The notes beneath the pieces were generated by a model. It did no database searches. It saw only the letters and a list, made by a program, of their open reading frames with translations, and was not told where the DNA came from. DNA of 24,446 bases from a virus (Duplodnaviria; Caudoviricetes), in IMG/VR virus record IMGVR_UViG_3300005805_000475, positions 1 to 24,446 of that record. One strand, written 5' to 3'. The translations under genes were made by a program, and so were the position numbers. Positions 2,258 through 21,809 of this stretch are shown in pieces. Position 1 is the stretch's first letter, and the number at the start of each line of letters is the position of its first letter.

Positions 2258-3088
2258 ATGGCTTGTACGGGTCCTTTTGTAAATGGTGTTAGTGGAGGCT
2301 CAGTCTGTGGCTGTTCATGCCCAGATTCTAAATGTTGTCCACCACCGTGTTGCACTTCAATTACATTGACTTTTGAATTAGGACCAGCCTACAACGAAGA
2401 AACAAACCCAGAAGGATGTAAATGCGAAGATCCAACCCCATCTCCATCTCCATCTCCAACCCCATCTCCATCTCCATCTGCTCCGGGATATCGAGCAATT
2501 GATTTTGAAAATGCAGATTGGGACACTGCAGAGAAAGAAAATTGGGAAACAGTGAATATAGGAACACATTTAATTCCTTTTCCAAAATTCATGCATAAAA
2601 ACAAACAAAAAGCAAACGATGACAATTTTGTATTTGCTTTAAATGCCAGTTGCTCTCTGCCATGTGAACTAGTAGAGGTAACTTTAGAAACCGATGGTTG
2701 TTGTCTTGAAATAGTTGACGGAACTAATGGGCAAACAAATTTTGGACCAGATGTTGTCATAAGAATGGTGGGTGATGGTTTCTTGTTTCCAACGGCAGCA
2801 GTGGGAACTTGCAAATTTGATCTTGTAGTTAACGGAACAACAATTACTGAAGAAGTAGACAGTATTGAATTACTGGATGGAGAAGAAATTACAGTTGAAA
2901 TAATTCCTACTGGTGACGGTGCCGGTTGTTGTGATCCTTGTTGGGTGGATACGCAATGCACTCCAAAGAACCTACTGTCTTCAAAAATATTTTACAGAGC
3001 TAGGTCCGTAAAACGAGGTTCTAAAGGGTATTTAAATATTACAAAGTTAAAACAAAAAATTGAAAAATTAAAGCGCAGAAAGTCTTGA
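2258..3088 (+). CDS. Cys-rich protein with Pro-Ser/Thr linker and basic C-terminus, possibly virion-associated
   Basis: 276-aa ORF with CGCSCP, CCPPPCC and CCDPC clusters, a PTPSPSPS linker, an acidic beta-rich middle and a K/R-rich tail. Confidence 0.65.
   Translation: MACTGPFVNGVSGGSVCGCSCPDSKCCPPPCCTSITLTFELGPAYNEETNPEGCKCEDPTPSPSPSPTPSPSPSAPGYRAIDFENADWDTAEKENWETVNIGTHLIPFPKFMHKNKQKANDDNFVFALNASCSLPCELVEVTLETDGCCLEIVDGTNGQTNFGPDVVIRMVGDGFLFPTAAVGTCKFDLVVNGTTITEEVDSIELLDGEEITVEIIPTGDGAGCCDPCWVDTQCTPKNLLSSKIFYRARSVKRGSKGYLNITKLKQKIEKLKRRKS
2432..2479 (+). repeat. Perfect 2 x 24-bp tandem repeat built of hexamers
   Basis: (CCAACC CCATCT CCATCT CCATCT) x2, encoding (PTPSPSPS) x2. Confidence 0.95.
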
Positions 3089-5092
3089 TGCTACTTCTTT
3101 AATCTCTTTGATTAAATCTTCTTTCATATTTAAAATTTTCTTCAACTTGTCATGGTCTATCTCGTTTACAGCATCAACATTCTTGAAGCCCAAATCGTAA
3201 AGTTTTGTTGCCCTTACTTTTCCAATGTTTGGCAATCGACACAAATTTATAAGATGTGCAGGAACTCCATAACCAATCCTAGATGCAACTTCTTGAAAAA
3301 AAGCTTCCTGACCCCATTTACCACTCATAGAATCTAGTGCCAATAAAATTTGTTGAACTCTTTCAAAATCAGTTTGCAAGCCTCTTTGATATCCAGCAAG
3401 ACTGGTCACATGCGATCCATTTAACAAGTTGTAATAACAAAAAGCTGCTTTTTTTATACCCTCTGTAAAAAATTTATATTCAGAAAAACAATCTCTTTGT
3501 AGCTTTTTATCAAACAAGCTTAGTTCTTGTTTCTCCGCAGAATTGACAATATTAGCTTTGTTTGAATCTATATTAGCCAAACATAAAGCCACATGTAAAT
3601 CAGATTTTTGTTTATTGTCTTTAAATAAAAAATAAAAATTCTTACTGTAATCAGCAATATCAAAAGGAGAAAAATAAAAAATACTCGCTATTTTCCCTAT
3701 GCTTGAAACTTTTAGCATACCATCATTATCAAATACAATTTTTTTATCTATCATTTCTTTTAAAATTTGATTTACATATGTAGGATTTAAGTGCCTTGAT
3801 TGAAAATAAGCCAAAGATCTTTCAAACCAAGTGTTTATATCTTCGATTTTTTCAATATTCTCATGAAAAATTTCGCTAACCAAATGAAAGGCAAGATTTC
3901 TAGGTTTTTCTAAAAGTTTTGAAATAATTTGTTGAGGTGCGTTTAATCTATCTCTGTGTCTTTTTGCATCAGAGTTTGGCAATAAAATATATGCATCTCC
4001 ACGAGGATCAATGCCCAATCTTCCTGATCTGCCAACCATTTGAGTTACATTATAAGTTTCAACTTCGTCTTTGCCACGATGAACTCCAAGAATTATAACT
4101 CGTCTAGCTGGTGTGTTGACTCCCCAAGCCAAGGTTGGAGTCGCAACAATAATTCGCAGTCCGTCTTTTTTCTTAAATCTTTTTTCTAAATCTATTCTTT
4201 TTGATTTATCTAAATCAGCATTGTGAAATTCGCAATCAATTGAATTGGCTTTAAATGTTTTGGTGATCAATTCACCAGTTCTTTTTGTGTGGGCAAATAC
4301 TAAAAACTTATCATCTGGATAATCATTTACGATGTCTAAAGCTTTCTCTATTTTAGCTTTTTCTTCCATATCGTAACTGTAACAATTGTCATCATCATAA
4401 TTTTCATAATGAATTCCCAAAGGTACTGGTCTATATTCTGAATCTAAAATATAAGTTTTTTTATTGTTAAGTTTAGATAACCACTCTGCTATTTGTTTGA
4501 CATTTGGCATAGTTGCCGATAAAAAAACAACTCTACAATTTGGATTAATTTGCGTAAATTTCATTAATCCAACTTCCAAATGTTCACCTCGTCCCGGCAC
4601 TGTAAGTAAATGAGATTCATCAATAACTAATGTGCCTATATCTTTTAAATACAAACTTTTTTCAGAATTTATATTTCTAGCTCGATGATTCAACATTTCC
4701 GATGTCATAATGATAAGATCAGATTTTTTTAATTCATCTTGTCTCTTGTCTGTGATTCTGTAATCGCCTGTGCAAATAGAAATGTTTGCATCGAAGAAAT
4801 GATAAGATGCATCAGTCCACTGATCTATTTTTTCTTGAGCCAAAGCCTTAAGCGGAGCAAGAAACATACCCTTGCCACCTCTTTTTCTTATTTCATGTGC
4901 CAGAAACATTTCAGCAATCACTGTTTTACCAGCACTCGTTTTTGCAGCCACTAACACATTGGCATCTTCTTCAAATATTTCAAATATTCTACTTTGAACT
5001 GGGTTAAATTTTTCAAATTCCCATTTGGCAAAAGGATATTTTGAACAATCTACTAATTCGAATTGATCTTTTATTTCAACAATCTCTTCCAT
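3068..5092 (-). CDS. Ski2-like SF2 helicase of Hel308/Hjm type with C-terminal helix-hairpin-helix
   Basis: Q motif FNPVQ, AKTSAGKT, APLKALAQEK, DESH, LSATMPN, RPVPL, TPTLAWGVNTPA, QMVGRSGR and HhH LPNIGKVRATKL. Start moved from track 5128 to ATG 5092 (SD AAAGGG). Confidence 0.9.
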   Translation of the reverse strand: MEEIVEIKDQFELVDCSKYPFAKWEFEKFNPVQSRIFEIFEEDANVLVAAKTSAGKTVIAEMFLAHEIRKRGGKGMFLAPLKALAQEKIDQWTDASYHFFDANISICTGDYRITDKRQDELKKSDLIIMTSEMLNHRARNINSEKSLYLKDIGTLVIDESHLLTVPGRGEHLEVGLMKFTQINPNCRVVFLSATMPNVKQIAEWLSKLNNKKTYILDSEYRPVPLGIHYENYDDDNCYSYDMEEKAKIEKALDIVNDYPDDKFLVFAHTKRTGELITKTFKANSIDCEFHNADLDKSKRIDLEKRFKKKDGLRIIVATPTLAWGVNTPARRVIILGVHRGKDEVETYNVTQMVGRSGRLGIDPRGDAYILLPNSDAKRHRDRLNAPQQIISKLLEKPRNLAFHLVSEIFHENIEKIEDINTWFERSLAYFQSRHLNPTYVNQILKEMIDKKIVFDNDGMLKVSSIGKIASIFYFSPFDIADYSKNFYFLFKDNKQKSDLHVALCLANIDSNKANIVNSAEKQELSLFDKKLQRDCFSEYKFFTEGIKKAAFCYYNLLNGSHVTSLAGYQRGLQTDFERVQQILLALDSMSGKWGQEAFFQEVASRIGYGVPAHLINLCRLPNIGKVRATKLYDLGFKNVDAVNEIDHDKLKKILNMKEDLIKEIKEVASRLSAL

Positions 5093-9789: not shown

Positions 9790-9818
9790 AATATCTCCTT
9801 TGTATTTTATTTGAATTG

Positions 9819-9859
9819 AAAAAAAGCGTGAACGCACTTATTTTGTACGCCCACGCTTT
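9819..9859 (-). terminator. Rho-independent terminator between the SSB gene and uvsX
   Basis: Minus strand AAAGCGUGGGCGUAC-aaaauaa-GUGCGUUCACGCUUUUUUU, a stem with G-U wobbles followed by a U7 tract. Confidence 0.8.
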
Positions 9860-9869
9860 GTATTAGAAT

Positions 9870-15435: not shown

Positions 15436-16956
15436 TTATTCCTCATCAGCGTCTATAACGCTATTTTTAGTGTGTTCTTTTTTCTTCTTTTTATCAACAG
15501 AGTAGGTATCGAATGCAATTTCTTCGCTCCTACGCATTTGCACCCTAGTCATTCTTTCTTTATATGTTTCAGCACTAATTTCATACATATCTAATGTACC
15601 CATAGAAAAATCAAAAGCTATTTTAAAAGGAAATCTTGATCTTCCATTTCTATGTTTAATCACAAAACCTCTACCGCACTCTGCATCTTTTTCGATTGTT
15701 TGCTGATTAATCGACCAAAAAGCATCAAGTGGCTTAAATTGATCAAATGATGTTCCAATGTTTGATTCATCAATATATTGTGAAATTTCTAATTTGGCAG
15801 CGGTTTGATTAGGCTGAACACATGTAAGAGTACAGTGCTGTTTTTCTACACCAAAACCTCTTAAATCTCTAAGTATTCTATAAGCACTTTCGTATTTTTT
15901 CACAGTGGGATCATCTTTCATTTCTCCAACATAATCAATAATCACAAGATTAGGTTTCCAACCCATAGATTCAAGTCTAGAGCAATATCCTCTAATGCCA
16001 TTAACATCAAGAGAACCACCCGGAAATTGTTTTAATATAAATAAATTTTGATCATCTTTGTCTTTGCCAAACTCTGCAATTGTTTTTTTAACTTGATCTT
16101 TACACTCTCGTAATAAATTAATATCAATTTTTGTAAATTGACTAGTGAATCTTTGTGCTATGCCTACTTCATCCATTTCCAATGTGATATATAAAACTTT
16201 ATGTCCAAGCAAAACATTGGCAACTGCAGCTTTTACCAATGCTAAACTCTTTCCAGTTCCCGGCAAACCTATCCATGCTCCTATTTGACCCGCAAACAAT
16301 CCTCCATTTGTCAAAGCGTCATCAATTGATGGGAAACCACTGGTGAATCTTTCTTTGCCCTCAAATTGATCATCCATTCTTCTAAACATTTCATCTACAT
16401 TTAAAAAATACTCCAAACCCGGTTCGTAATTTGTATCAACATTCATGGACTCTCGCATTTTTTCATATACGAAACTCCATGTCTTTTCATCTTCGGGAGC
16501 TTCTGCCATCTTCTTGGCACATTCTCCAAATGCAACCTTGACTGCCTGAACTCGTGCAAAATATGTAACTCGCTCTAACAAATATTCACGAGTATCAACA
16601 TTAGGAACATAATAATCGTATAGAGCTTCCAATTCAGTCACATAATATAATTGAACTGAACTTTCTTTTTCTTTGAGATGACTTAAAAGTTCTTGTTTCA
16701 TAACAGAAATATGTGGCAAAACTCTTTTTTGTTCAAAATATTTAAAAAGAATATTTACAATAGTTACATGCACTTCATTGCTGAAATAAAATGATTTTAA
16801 TTTATCTAAACTCTGAATAAGCATGGTTTGATCCATAAGAAGCATACCAAGTATGCGTCTTTGAAATGTATCATCCCATGCAAATCTAGTTTTTACTGCG
16901 TCTGGATCAGAATATGAATCTAATTTAGCTTGTTCTTCAGGTGTTAATTCTCTCAT
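15436..16956 (-). CDS. Replicative DnaB-family helicase (T4 gp41-like)
   Basis: FTSGFPSIDD, GLPGTGKS, VLYITLEMD, IIDYVGEM, CVQPN, IKHRNG. AGAGGG SD. Confidence 0.93.
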   Translation of the reverse strand: MRELTPEEQAKLDSYSDPDAVKTRFAWDDTFQRRILGMLLMDQTMLIQSLDKLKSFYFSNEVHVTIVNILFKYFEQKRVLPHISVMKQELLSHLKEKESSVQLYYVTELEALYDYYVPNVDTREYLLERVTYFARVQAVKVAFGECAKKMAEAPEDEKTWSFVYEKMRESMNVDTNYEPGLEYFLNVDEMFRRMDDQFEGKERFTSGFPSIDDALTNGGLFAGQIGAWIGLPGTGKSLALVKAAVANVLLGHKVLYITLEMDEVGIAQRFTSQFTKIDINLLRECKDQVKKTIAEFGKDKDDQNLFILKQFPGGSLDVNGIRGYCSRLESMGWKPNLVIIDYVGEMKDDPTVKKYESAYRILRDLRGFGVEKQHCTLTCVQPNQTAAKLEISQYIDESNIGTSFDQFKPLDAFWSINQQTIEKDAECGRGFVIKHRNGRSRFPFKIAFDFSMGTLDMYEISAETYKERMTRVQMRRSEEIAFDTYSVDKKKKKEHTKNSVIDADEE

Positions 16957-17948: not shown

Positions 17949-18506
17949 CTATTCGCCATTTAAATAATCATATTCTGACAAAGATACCTGCCCCGATCTT
18001 ATAGATTTTTCCCTTGTAATCTTTTTTCCCATACTTTTTTGACCATTCCAAATAATGGCTTTGCAGTATGTTGAAAATTTTGTATCTACTTTTAATTTTG
18101 CGTGTCTGTCAGGTCTTGCCTTTTTAGGAACTATTGATTTAACAATTATGTCCAACATATTTTCTTGCTTATAACCAAACTTTTGTCTGTTTGCTCCGTG
18201 CCTAGTTCTATTTGTCCATAAATCATTAAGTTTATTTATAATTTTTCCTATAAAGAAATCGCAATTAAATTGACCAACAATGGAAAGACATTTTTCAATA
18301 TAAATCTGTCTTTTGTAATAAGAACCAGCACGAATAATAGAAAGTTGTAATTCTTGATTTATATCTTCAAAATCATCAGTGTAGTTGTTTTTCGTGTTCT
18401 TCTTTTCAAGTTGATGAGCAGCGTAATAACACAATTTACCAAAACATTTTGTAAGATGATCATACTCGTCAGTTGTAATGGGAAAAGACTGGCATATGTT
18501 CTTCAT
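17949..18506 (-). CDS. Sigma70 region-2-only sigma factor (functionally T4 gp55-like) with an internal insertion
   Basis: DFEDINQELQLSIIRA resembles region 2.2 (DLIQEG..GL..A) and TKFSTYCKAIIWN resembles region 2.3 (KFSTYA.WWI). No region 4 HTH follows. Confidence 0.65.
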   Translation of the reverse strand: MKNICQSFPITTDEYDHLTKCFGKLCYYAAHQLEKKNTKNNYTDDFEDINQELQLSIIRAGSYYKRQIYIEKCLSIVGQFNCDFFIGKIINKLNDLWTNRTRHGANRQKFGYKQENMLDIIVKSIVPKKARPDRHAKLKVDTKFSTYCKAIIWNGQKSMGKKITREKSIRSGQVSLSEYDYLNGE

Positions 18507-19831
18507 GTTTTCCTACTTGGTAATTTTATAGTTTTCATCTCCGTTAATTTCCTTCCAACACTACATGACACACTCATGTTTAGATTTGGAAACAATTTAC
18601 ATTCAGAGATCAGCGATTTATGAGAATTTAATATAACTTCCTTAAGTTTATCTTTTCTCGAATAAATCATATATCCGTCATGTACATTATATGCTATTTT
18701 TGTCAAATCCTTCAAGGATTCATAAAGATCAACAAGCTTATATAAACAAAATATTGCTGCGGGAGATTGCACAGCAAAATTTCTTGCTCTATAAAATTTG
18801 TCAGGAAAATTTCTTATTTTTCCCAAAAAATCTTCCGCTTTTTTATCAGACTCTGCTTTTTTTTGATGGCTTTCAATCCATGCGTAAGATGTGCAAAATA
18901 TATTTTTAATTCTATCAACAATCGCTTCAGATGTTTTCATGGGCAAACCAATTTTTTCAGAAATACCATAAGCACTCATTCCATAAAACACAGGAAGTAG
19001 AAACTTTTTACATAATGATCTTTTTTCTTCAGTGTCGCAGGGAGTTTTTAAAATTTTCTCATAAGCACTTTTGTAAATGTCTTCACTTTGACAAAGCTCA
19101 TTTATTTCTTTATCTTTTGATAGCCAACCCAACATTTTAACTTCCATGCTTTTATAATCCATATAAACAAACACACTTTCAAAATCCAAAGGCTTTAATG
19201 TTTCTTTTTGTTCAGGAGTGATAACATGAGGCACATATGCTCTTGTAAAAGCCTTATAACACAACATTCTGCCGTTTTCTTGTCCAGTAATTTCATAATG
19301 AGCATGAAGCTTTTCAGTTGTAAGTATACCTACAGTTTCGAGGTCTGGAATTACATTTAGAACCAAAGGCAAATGCACGGTTTTATAAATGTGATTTATC
19401 TTTGACCAATTGCTTGAAAGCATAACTTGCTTCAAACGATTCATAAATGACAAAAAATTTACAGGCTTTTCGTTTTTAGTGTCGTTGTAACTTTCTAATA
19501 TTTTAAGATCAATTATTGTTCCATTTACTTGAATTTTAATTCCATACATACCAAGAAAAAAAGACACAATGGATTTCCAATCCCAAGCCAACAATTTTTT
19601 TCCAACTTCACAACAATTCATTAAGGCTTTGGCGAAAATTCTAGCAGACCAATCATCAGCAATCGGAATTTCATGATTGCCAGAGTTTGAGGACAATAAA
19701 ATTTTCACAGATTTAGCTTTTTCTCTATTTGTAAAATCCAAAACACCATCCACAGAAGCTATAAAAACAGCACCTGTTTGAAAATGATCTAGCAAAAGCT
19801 TAACAATTTGGCTTGGATGCATCAAACTCAT
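18503..19831 (-). CDS. polA: Family A DNA polymerase-like protein, short and apparently thumb-less
   Basis: Motif A MDYKSMEVKML, motif B RSLCKKFLLPVFYG, ARNFAVQSPAA, motif C NVHDG. Degenerate N-terminal exonuclease-like region (AWDWK, IIDLKILE). Confidence 0.88.
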   Translation of the reverse strand: MSLMHPSQIVKLLLDHFQTGAVFIASVDGVLDFTNREKAKSVKILLSSNSGNHEIPIADDWSARIFAKALMNCCEVGKKLLAWDWKSIVSFFLGMYGIKIQVNGTIIDLKILESYNDTKNEKPVNFLSFMNRLKQVMLSSNWSKINHIYKTVHLPLVLNVIPDLETVGILTTEKLHAHYEITGQENGRMLCYKAFTRAYVPHVITPEQKETLKPLDFESVFVYMDYKSMEVKMLGWLSKDKEINELCQSEDIYKSAYEKILKTPCDTEEKRSLCKKFLLPVFYGMSAYGISEKIGLPMKTSEAIVDRIKNIFCTSYAWIESHQKKAESDKKAEDFLGKIRNFPDKFYRARNFAVQSPAAIFCLYKLVDLYESLKDLTKIAYNVHDGYMIYSRKDKLKEVILNSHKSLISECKLFPNLNMSVSCSVGRKLTEMKTIKLPSRKT

Positions 19832-19837
19832 TCCTAA

Positions 19838-19865
19838 AGTCTACCACGACTTACACTTAAAACAA
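19838..19865 (-). promoter_or_regulatory. Putative sigma70-type promoter giving a leaderless polA mRNA
   Basis: TTGTTT-N16-TAGACT with extended TGn. The ATG is 6 nt downstream of the -10. Confidence 0.5.
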
Positions 19866-19918
19866 TACAAAAATTTTTTTTAGTTTATATTTCTACTACT
19901 TTTATATTAAATTGTTTT

Positions 19919-20345
19919 AAACCGAGTTGCCGACTTAGTTAAGCTGCTGTTACTATAAATGAATAATATTATTACTACTCATAATAGAATCGTTTGAACT
20001 ATTTCTGTGTTTAAACATAGCGTAATTCATTTGATCCAACAGTTAACTCACAGTTTGAATTCTTATGACAATCATAAGATTCTACTTACTAAAACATTTG
20101 ATACCAATGTAGCCTTATAACTCACAGATGTTCCCATTTCTTGTCTGCAAAATGAGAGTCGGCATTTTTTGACACATCTGCGGATGACTTGGCATTCGAG
20201 CATAACAATGGCTCTCGTTGCGCCATTCGTGTTTAACACTACAAAGACTTACCTGCGAAGGCTGCTCAAGTTTTTTACAGATGACTAAATGTTGGGGTAT
20301 CTCAACAAAAAATCAAAAGGGAAGAGTAAGCTTCCTTCTTAGTAA
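19919..20345 (+). ncRNA. Putative large structured non-coding RNA (~430 nt), family unrecognised
   Basis: The only long ORF-free gap in the window. More than ten nested stems, G-U wobbles and a GCGA tetraloop favouring the + strand, and a 9-bp long-range pairing (19928-36 with 20156-64). Ends are approximate. Confidence 0.65.
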
Positions 20346-20376
20346 TAAATAAAGTTTCTATGACAAGTTGAAAGTA

Positions 20377-21024
20377 TTATAATTTACAACCATTGATTTT
20401 CCAATACAAATTTTCCTCAAAATCTTTTCCAAGAGGACAACAAAGGTCAATCAACACTTTTTCATACATCGCATTGAATGATAACATTCTTGAATGAAAT
20501 GAATTTTTATGAAAGATTTCCTTCTTAAATGGAGGAATAGGACCAAAAAGTGTATTTATGTGAAAATAAAATTCTGAATAATATTGATTGTATTTTATAG
20601 GAATGATTTTTTTAAAATTTTCTAATTTTCCACATTTCAATAACATGTTTTGAGGCGAATGAGCAAACCAGTCAAATCCCTTCATGCTTGGGCCATACCG
20701 GTTATCAACACCATTATTTATCAATATAAAATCTTCAATATTCAGTAAATCGACTTTATTTTCAAAGTTCGTAGCATAATTGGAATAACACGATATTACC
20801 CAAGATGTTAAAGGTCTATATGGTAAAAAAATTACATAATCTTTAATATTCTCAACCCAATTATCTTGTAAAAGGGTATGATGATGATTAATTTTTTTAA
20901 GAGGCGTAGGTGTGTATTTTATTTTGAAATTATTTATATTGCTTAACAATGTGGCTTTTATAGACTCCGAGGCACATCTAGGTGGCAAAAGAACAATAAA
21001 TTTGTAAAAATGATTTAAAAGCAT
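20377..21024 (-). CDS. Sulfotransferase-like protein (Sulfotransfer_2-type)
   Basis: FIVLLPPRCASESI resembles the 5'-PSB motif (PKxAS), YRPLTSWVISCY the 3'-PB motif (RxP..R..S.Y), and SPQ follows. Confidence 0.55.
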   Translation of the reverse strand: MLLNHFYKFIVLLPPRCASESIKATLLSNINNFKIKYTPTPLKKINHHHTLLQDNWVENIKDYVIFLPYRPLTSWVISCYSNYATNFENKVDLLNIEDFILINNGVDNRYGPSMKGFDWFAHSPQNMLLKCGKLENFKKIIPIKYNQYYSEFYFHINTLFGPIPPFKKEIFHKNSFHSRMLSFNAMYEKVLIDLCCPLGKDFEENLYWKINGCKL

Positions 21025-21113: not shown

Positions 21114-21809
21114 ATGTTCGATTTAAATTTTTTAAACAAGAAACACAATATGAATGAATTGGAAATTAAAGCCTTAAAGGTTTGTAATATTTGGATGGAA
21201 CTTAGCAGGAAAATTTTTCCAAAATACAATCATGGAAAGGTAGCTAAAGGTGATCCAAGAAAAACTTTAATGTTTAAGGTTTGTTACAAATTAGTACGAG
21301 AGACAGAAGCTTTTATTGAGGATGATGATTATAAGCTGTATGTTAGAGCGCAATTGGATATATTAAAACATATTAGTTTAGATAAAGGACATCCGCTTAT
21401 AGATGTAAATTGTCTTATAGGCGATAAAGCATGGAAAAGATGGAAGTTATGGAAGAAAAAATATGACACTACTGTTCAAATTAGAAGTAAAGTTTCCACA
21501 ACAAAGAAAAACACCAGCAAAATAAATGATTTGCTTAAAAAAACTAGAGATTTTTTCAAAATAACTTATGGAGATGTTATAAATTTTGAGAAATTTATAG
21601 AAATAGAAAAAAACGGAGAATTATATCAACATATAAATCTTGGCAGAATATCACCCTACTATTTGGTGTTATCGCCCTTTTTTGAAAAAATTTCAAAAAA
21701 TTTACAGATGAAAAAAATTCATTTTGATTTGAACATTTATAAAAGTGGAATAGATGAATCAGTAATAAAATATTTTGAAAATCTTTTTGATTATGAATTT
21801 AACTTGTAA
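21114..21809 (+). CDS. Hypothetical helical protein, possibly a T4 gp59-like helicase loader
   Basis: Clear ORF. Size and the segments LIGDKAWKRWKLWKKK and LYQHINLGRISPYYLVL loosely echo gp59. Function is speculative. Confidence 0.4.
   Translation: MFDLNFLNKKHNMNELEIKALKVCNIWMELSRKIFPKYNHGKVAKGDPRKTLMFKVCYKLVRETEAFIEDDDYKLYVRAQLDILKHISLDKGHPLIDVNCLIGDKAWKRWKLWKKKYDTTVQIRSKVSTTKKNTSKINDLLKKTRDFFKITYGDVINFEKFIEIEKNGELYQHINLGRISPYYLVLSPFFEKISKNLQMKKIHFDLNIYKSGIDESVIKYFENLFDYEFNL

Follow-up and report, generated by a model that had tools for sequence, protein, structure and literature searches.

A conserved structured RNA upstream of a thumb-less family A DNA polymerase as a likely replication origin of jumbo phages

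The window, meaning the whole stretch of DNA analysed here, is a 24-kb virus record of 24,446 nucleotides (IMG/VR record IMGVR_UViG_3300005805_000475), and coordinates are given as window positions (Table 1). It carries a T4-like replication block with UvsX/RecA, a gp32-like single-stranded DNA-binding protein, a DnaB-like helicase and others, in which a structured RNA element is followed by an AT-rich spacer, by polA, which encodes a family A DNA polymerase (PolA) without a thumb, and by a gene for a 185-aa protein. The relatives of the window are jumbo phages, the largest contig being 436 kb with an estimated completeness of 85%, and a full-length homologue was found in one of 50,697 GenBank phages, in the 595-kb record LR756511.1. 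The sample comprised 220 loci (219 fetched plus the window), of which 218 contained PolA, and clustering at 95% identity left 71. The first-pass annotation had described a structured RNA in the gap, a thumb-less PolA, a spacer of under 90 bp and a 4-nt overlap between polA and a sigma-like gene, and all four features stand, the RNA being conserved and covarying and the spacer measuring 89 nt; the boundary it had drawn at 20345 leaves out part of the RNA, whose 5' end lies near 20368.

Table 1. Features of the RNA-polA locus and its neighbourhood in window positions
Feature	Position	Strand	Remarks
Structured RNA element	19921..20368	-	about 450 nt, not in Rfam; covariation, covariance model matches
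H-type pseudoknot at RNA 5' end	20340-20320	-
Long-range RNA pairing	20367-20362 with 20145-20140	-
Long-range RNA pairing	20301-20296 with 20105-20100	-
Loop-to-3'-end helix	loop of hairpin 20228-20207 with 19926-19923	-
Long-range RNA pairing	20164-20157 with 19934-19927	-
Segment X	20246..20251	-	internal 6-mer, predicted single-stranded; proposed DNA anchor; co-varies with X'
Segment X'	19932..19937	-	identical copy of X near RNA 3' end; template DNA strand there is the proposed target of X
Promoter-like site, sigma70 type	20376..20404	-	TTGGAA-17-TATAAT, 10/12 consensus match; predicted to drive the RNA
AT-rich spacer	19832..19920		candidate unwinding element or RNA-to-DNA transition; probably also weak polA promoter
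polA	18503..19831	-	442-aa family A DNA polymerase without a thumb; 3'-5' exonuclease domain degenerate
185-aa protein gene	17949..18506	-	all-helical, conserved; weak sigma70 region-2 likeness; insert of ~70 aa
231-aa conserved gene	21114..21809	+	divergent from RNA and polA; possibly T4 gp59-like helicase loader, lead only
DnaB/gp41-like replicative helicase	15436..16956	-	PF03796 9e-11, phrog_19 7e-52; in conserved block

The RNA element contains covarying helices and four pseudoknots. Upstream of polA, the gap sequence keeps 80% identity where the proteins are 73% identical, and about 69% where they are 50% identical. Folded as a single sequence, the RNA gives a weak signal (z -2.1 and -1.8), so the case for structure rests on covariation; RNAalifold on the gappy full alignment returned only 9 pairs, and the helices were then defined by hand and counted. 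In the RNA core, 87% of cells were paired and two-sided changes occurred in 31 of 36 pairs, values reached by 0 of 500 shuffles (69% paired, 21 two-sided pairs), and slid controls were 37-44% paired. The five long-range or pseudoknot helices tested all paired better in cognate than in non-cognate combinations (0 of 5000 permutations), and these shuffle and permutation values ignore relatedness and come from a structure read from the same sequences, so that they are not probabilities. The helix joining a hairpin loop to the 3' end was 100% paired in 34/34 RNAs. A terminator-like hairpin at 20335-20320 was considered, and it more probably belongs to the conserved H-type pseudoknot. The RNAs of L047, L035, L040 and L031 appear to begin later, behind a near-consensus promoter, and have no 5' pseudoknot, and L187 (2365-2939) shows a tandem duplication of ~45 nt in the variable 3' part, possibly an assembly artefact.

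A covariance model (CM) of the core, built from 31 sequences, matched 36 of 70 polA loci, five of them new to the model; this is a lower bound, since L076, L077 and L048 share the architecture by eye without a CM match. Run without filters on 10 RNA-negative loci, the model gave nothing below E 0.4. At E <= 0.01 one copy per contig was found in all eight RNA-positive contigs, and a motif scan of IMG/VR returned 37 matches, 36 of which were, by comparison of contig names, on polA contigs, the other being a chance match inside a coding gene. Presence of the RNA clusters on a quick PolA tree, with 4 changes as against 22.8 when shuffled. Rfam searches of the window and 16 loci, and ARAGORN, gave no meaningful match, and no CM or ARAGORN match was obtained to the known large RNAs (tmRNA, RNase P, group I/II, GOLLD, ROOL, OLE). 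Literature searches, mostly without subscription papers, returned no description of this RNA or of an RNA-primed route for these phages.

The RNA most likely lies on the strand of polA, judging from its promoter-like site, the promoter scores of relatives and an excess of G-U pairs, and the divergent arrangement proposed in the first reading is not upheld. Promoter scores of at least 10/12 occurred upstream of the RNA on the polA strand in 9 of 34 relatives (12/12 in L047) and on the opposite strand within the spacer in 2 of 34; in the region as a whole, promoter-like sites were not above shuffles (17 found, 18.3 expected). The predicted pairs contain more G-U than A-C (55:32 and 32:8), a count biased by the choice of structure on the polA strand. 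Among RNA runs no carrier of the element was listed, a result uninformative about expression. Between RNA and polA, the first 60 nt of the spacer are 88% AT as against 70% for the locus, and spacer AT content exceeds the locus mean in 34/34 cases. The structured part of the RNA stops 64-230 nt ahead of the polA start codon. In the window, a 215-aa open reading frame (ORF) of no known family (20377-21024, minus strand) separates the RNA from the gp59-like gene as an insertion, and its stop codon falls inside the predicted -10 box of the RNA promoter.

PolA matches PF00476 at 4.5e-21 and belongs to family A only, with no reverse transcriptase match. Going by sequence and model, the thumb is absent, since the Pfam DNA_pol_A profile is covered only over positions 103-379 of 381 (positions 1-102 unmatched), the first palm strand is where the alignment with Taq begins, and this strand, at 174, directly succeeds the helix at residues 142-167 in the AF2 model (pLDDT 95.7). 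The linker spans 24-33 residues in 62 of 71 non-redundant loci, the other nine not being parsed. The palm and finger fold and motifs A, B and C are present; D225 and E230 (motif A), R271 and K275 (motif B) and D385 (motif C), together with R188 and Q355, are invariant across 46 aligned homologues, and the enzyme is therefore predicted, from conservation only, to be catalytically competent, its invariant steric-gate Glu pointing to DNA synthesis. By Foldseek, PolA has the fold of DNA polymerase I in its Klenow-type fragment (E about 1e-19, TMq about 0.75), and its N-terminal domain has a 3'-5' exonuclease-domain fold, in which the acidic exonuclease motifs, as commonly defined, were not found in the 46-homologue alignment. 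PolA resembles Klenow-type enzymes (Taq, Bst) in fold and in palm and finger motifs, and differs from them in the ~100 absent thumb profile positions, the degenerate exonuclease motifs, Leu-Pro for Phe-Gly in motif B and HDG as motif C. By gene content it is an accessory polymerase: DnaE is encoded in 5/5 long relatives and PolB in none, and PolA as the phage replicase was rejected on this ground.

The position upstream of polA, here called the slot, is not always occupied by the RNA. Among the 34 loci without a CM match, many keep a 500-800-nt gap of structured-looking sequence, and others have a protein gene abutting polA. In L139 (1362-2645) the slot holds an ORF resembling archaeo-eukaryotic primases (AEP; PF22548, 9e-5), ColE2-Rep-like in logic; the slot of L166 is similar by eye, and L120 is also AEP primase-like. 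In L091 (2499-3662), L092, L093, L173, L214 and LR756511.1 (395203-396366), a 390-aa Rep-like ORF from a family of 181 homologues overlaps or abuts the polA start and replaces the RNA, with ~10 nt left between it and the gp59-like gene in LR756511. By eye this ORF resembles an initiator; it had no match in Pfam, PHROG or PDB sequence searches. Thumb-less PolA with the same motifs is kept in these six loci, where no room is left for an RNA, and protein genes filling the slot in several relatives argue that the RNA is not obligatory for PolA. The obligate three-part, retron-like ribonucleoprotein suggested by the first-pass annotation is weakened accordingly. A copy of the RNA elsewhere was found by CM in 0 of 9 RNA-negative contigs, which are fragments and in which distant variants would be missed.

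Several further observations concern the slot. Motifs of the 390-aa family resemble, by eye, a second thumb-less family A palm, an invariant IRC lies in a hydrophobic linker, beneath which a DNA signal may be concealed, and homologues are named from Planctomycetota. L168, and L023 and L029 (both about 3200-3950), carry a different conserved structured-looking sequence in the gap; L023 and L029 nest within the RNA-positive clade, and all that they retain of the core helix is a collapsed remnant. The gaps of L057, L073, L072, L065, L161 and L172 (650-800 nt), some of which share short motifs, are candidate additional RNA families, none of them in Rfam. L058/L059 contain a transposase/TnpB-like fragment (by eye), and this genome, G001, has no skew switch there.

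Strand bias was examined by fitting, blind to polA, a change point in the T/A bias at four-fold sites with the coding strand modelled. With one change point, a significant switch was obtained in 7 of 12 contigs, three of these RNA-positive, and the slot lay inside all seven support intervals, which span 0.7-19% of each contig; four of the seven optima were the gene boundary nearest the slot. With two change points, 4 of 8 contigs had their origin-type switch no more than 2 kb from the slot. When genes within 10 kb were excluded, 10 of 12 contigs showed a higher T content in genes directed away from the slot (p < 0.01), and the T-rich strand flipped on both sides of the slot in 8 of 12. This behaviour points to a replication origin at the slot. 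The switch, taken with the primase-like and Rep-like genes in the same slot of relatives, argues for an origin or primer role, the option in the first-pass annotation that fits best; no link to a late-transcription switch, which had been attached to it, was found. The conserved RNA likely marks the bidirectional replication origin of the phage. Skews of bidirectional replication are reported for ~30% of huge-phage genomes (PMC7162821).

Within the RNA, a 5-6-nt segment X is repeated identically as X'. Of 34 RNAs, 28 have the repeat, and in these 28 sequences, which comprise at least seven sequence types, a change in one copy is matched in the other (mean 5.7 nt shared, against 3.8 for non-cognate pairs). 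The same repeat, anchored and picked by eye, occurs in eight distant loci (4.9 versus 2.9 nt). A complement of X/X' within the RNA was sought with wobble allowed, and none was consistent, the best column reaching 12 of 28. Identity without a partner in the RNA implies one outside it, either DNA copied from X or, at X', the template strand of the DNA, and the internal segment could by its sequence pair with the template strand near the origin. In the clade of L042, L027, L194, L028, L022 and L198, X and the adjacent hairpin are missing and the 5' pseudoknot has a conserved insertion.

By analogy, a ColE1-like RNA-primed origin, in which the RNA is a pre-primer extended by a dedicated, short-run, thumb-less PolA, is the reading that we favour with moderate confidence. 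A transcript from the promoter-like site would fold into the pseudoknotted core, X would pair with the template DNA strand at X' and hold an R-loop open, and the RNA downstream of X' would remain hybridised over the AT-rich spacer and then be trimmed. The thumb-less PolA would extend the RNA 3' end over a short run, forming a displacement loop (D-loop) at which the helicase may be loaded, and DnaE may then take over synthesis. The sequence data show the covarying structure, the identity of X and X', the lost thumb with its catalytic residues retained elsewhere in the enzyme, DnaE in relatives and, for most contigs, the skew switch at the slot; that the RNA is transcribed, forms an R-loop and primes, and that PolA has low processivity and hands over, are steps that we infer.

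A number of findings weigh against an RNA-primed origin at the slot. In LR756511.1, which has the Rep-like ORF, the best switch (150 kb of 595 examined) is at 439 kb with an interval of 426-441 kb, 43 kb from the slot at 396 kb, which is excluded. The optimum of RNA-positive G008 is 11 kb off and also excludes the slot (p 0.075), and G001, G004, G014 and G015 have no significant switch. A G/C bias switch at the slot was seen in 0 of 12 contigs, and in the window itself the bias is confined to the long left side (p 2e-7) and is missing from the 4 kb to the right (p 0.5). Skew resolves to kilobases, too coarse for the RNA itself, and the equation of the T-rich strand with the leading strand is borrowed from bacteria. 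Six RNAs, those of the L042 clade, do not have X, and the RNA 3' end pairs within the RNA, which means that the RNA cannot be wholly hybridised to DNA. A phage RNase H was found in only one of five contigs, below the cut-off, and the host enzyme could serve. Motif C of PolA reads HDG, and its activity is predicted from sequence. A derivation of the 390-aa ORF from PolA was considered and is not supported, as the likeness is by eye only, hhalign gives a probability of 1.9%, and Pfam, PHROG and PDB give no match.

The RNA might instead be a template for PolA. A few bases ending in X would be copied, and the DNA would jump to X' on the RNA or anneal to the displaced strand at X', priming the opposite fork, the RNA replacing the thumb; this is unlikely in our judgement. 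Realignment of this type is known from telomerase, DRT2 or hepadnavirus, and identical co-varying repeats are its mark as well; X lies directly 3' of a conserved hairpin, which may be a template boundary, the RNA clusters on the quick PolA tree, and the reading is compatible with the origin location. However, the thumb-less PolA persists with the same motifs where a protein gene fills the slot, the CM found a copy elsewhere in 0 of 9 RNA-negative contigs (subject to the limits given above), six RNAs are without X, and what lies from X to X' would template poorly, being the pseudoknotted core. PolA and RNA would together be a ribonucleoprotein primase whose product, ending in X, anneals at X' on the displaced strand and starts replication, an arrangement we think improbable. 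If true, a family A polymerase would prime a phage origin in a telomerase-like manner.

A role of the RNA at the origin without PolA, as a structural origin or helicase-loading RNA, with PolA as a distributive gap filler for Okazaki fragments or repair, is also doubtful. The whole block is syntenic, PolA is retained whatever occupies the slot, and DnaE replisomes require gap filling; against this, a 5'-3' exonuclease family match was obtained in 0/5 contigs (fragments), and PolA stands directly behind three slot types, of which two are reminiscent of replicons that depend on Pol I, namely the RNA primer of ColE1 and the primase Rep of ColE2. That the RNA serves the polA operon as a cis-regulatory leader, a ribozyme or an independent non-coding RNA, with skew due to divergent gene layout, is very unlikely: it shares the strand of polA, lies 5' of it and is not set off by a clear terminator, ribozymes typically have multi-pseudoknot folds, and skew disagrees or is silent in 6/13 contigs, yet the skew test corrects for coding strand and holds with local genes removed, replacement by primase-like genes and X/X' identity would be left unexplained, and the structure stops well before the start codon.

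Around RNA and polA, the neighbourhood is a conserved replication block and not evidence of a complex, since DnaB (downstream of polA within 3 kb in 41 of 48 loci) and a divergent gp59-like gene (no farther than 2.6 kb from polA in 43 of 54) are likewise conserved neighbours. The gp59-like 231-aa gene has an ESM feature match to the T4_Gp59_N cluster (0.92, 131 shared features), and no structural support for this identity was found. The 185-aa protein, with 843 homologues, is encoded directly after polA in 64 of 66 loci, so that of the neighbours expected of thumb-less PolA homologues in the first-pass annotation, this one recurs almost throughout and the RNA, by CM, in 36 of 70, the slot being otherwise occupied in some. 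The insert-bearing gene is there as described, and its naming as a sigma factor is a lead only: ESM links it (0.94, only 128 shared features) to a cluster that is 58% Sigma70_r2, a Pfam sigma match occurs in 1 of 52 family members (E 0.18), hhalign against sigma gives a probability of 8%, or 30% with the insert masked (reversed control 3%), and Foldseek with the model found no match. In each of contigs G001-G005, two genes lying 5-22 kb from one another encode a split DnaE. Elsewhere in the window, a strong terminator-like hairpin (9814-9869, minus strand) with a weak L20-leader match lies between the gp32-like and UvsX-like genes, and a Cys-rich ORF with a Pro-Ser/Thr repeat (2258-3088, plus strand) is conserved in position in G002. 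Repeats across the region were at chance level only.

Set against known systems, the locus probably works, with some reservation, like a Pol I-dependent RNA-primed origin; it is not a member of the ColE1 group by homology, as no Rfam match to RNA II or RNA I and no plasmid blastn match was found. For the pairing in ColE1 of an rG stretch with a dC stretch, the primary paper is reportedly that of Masukata and Tomizawa from 1990. This pairing of the RNA with the template strand is described as essential for a stable R-loop (PMC4412123), and RNA II begins 550 bp upstream of the origin and is extended by Pol I (PMC5043065). In the proposed reading, the jumbo-phage locus shares with ColE1 a promoter about 450-550 nt upstream of an origin and a folded RNA (PMC5043065, PMC4412123), a segment inside the RNA that could pair with downstream template DNA, and a family A polymerase for extension. 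Unlike ColE1, it has a multi-pseudoknot fold, a variable 5-6-mer in place of a G stretch, its own thumb-less PolA instead of host Pol I, and a 400-500-kb phage genome whose replication is apparently bidirectional; no antisense RNA I is in evidence, no search directed at one over the RNA 5' part having been made. Plasmid origins of the MRB (marine RNA-based) type in Vibrionaceae are described as protein-free, with an RNA II of at least 465 nt, and convergent with ColE1 (PMC3035462); these differ in being on a plasmid, in being defined by a 68-nt antisense RNA I and in having no dedicated polymerase. No homology of the jumbo-phage RNA to MRB origins was detected.

Retrons, DRT2 and telomerase pair a polymerase with a template RNA, and the locus is like them in its structured RNA just upstream of the polymerase on the same strand and in short direct repeats within the RNA. 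It is unlike them in having a family A enzyme in place of a reverse transcriptase, an RNA that the family does not always carry, and as its setting a core replication locus, not a defence island. T4 uses a family B replicase and is not known to have a conserved structured RNA at its origin, whereas DnaE and a separate thumb-less PolA are encoded here; gp59-like, gp41-like, gp32-like and UvsX-like genes nearby are the T4-like side of the locus. At T4 oriF and oriG, a promoter and a downstream unwinding element yield a persistent RNA-DNA hybrid that serves as primer (PMC4412123).

The locus provides a concrete candidate origin for a widespread clade of 400-600-kb phages, and we know of no element that defines the replication origins of huge phages. 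It brings together a new large pseudoknotted RNA and a family A polymerase that is naturally thumb-less, which would be a natural probe of what the thumb contributes. Moreover, the initiation slot, in which the RNA may be swapped for a primase-like or Rep-like gene, mirrors the classes of plasmid replicons.

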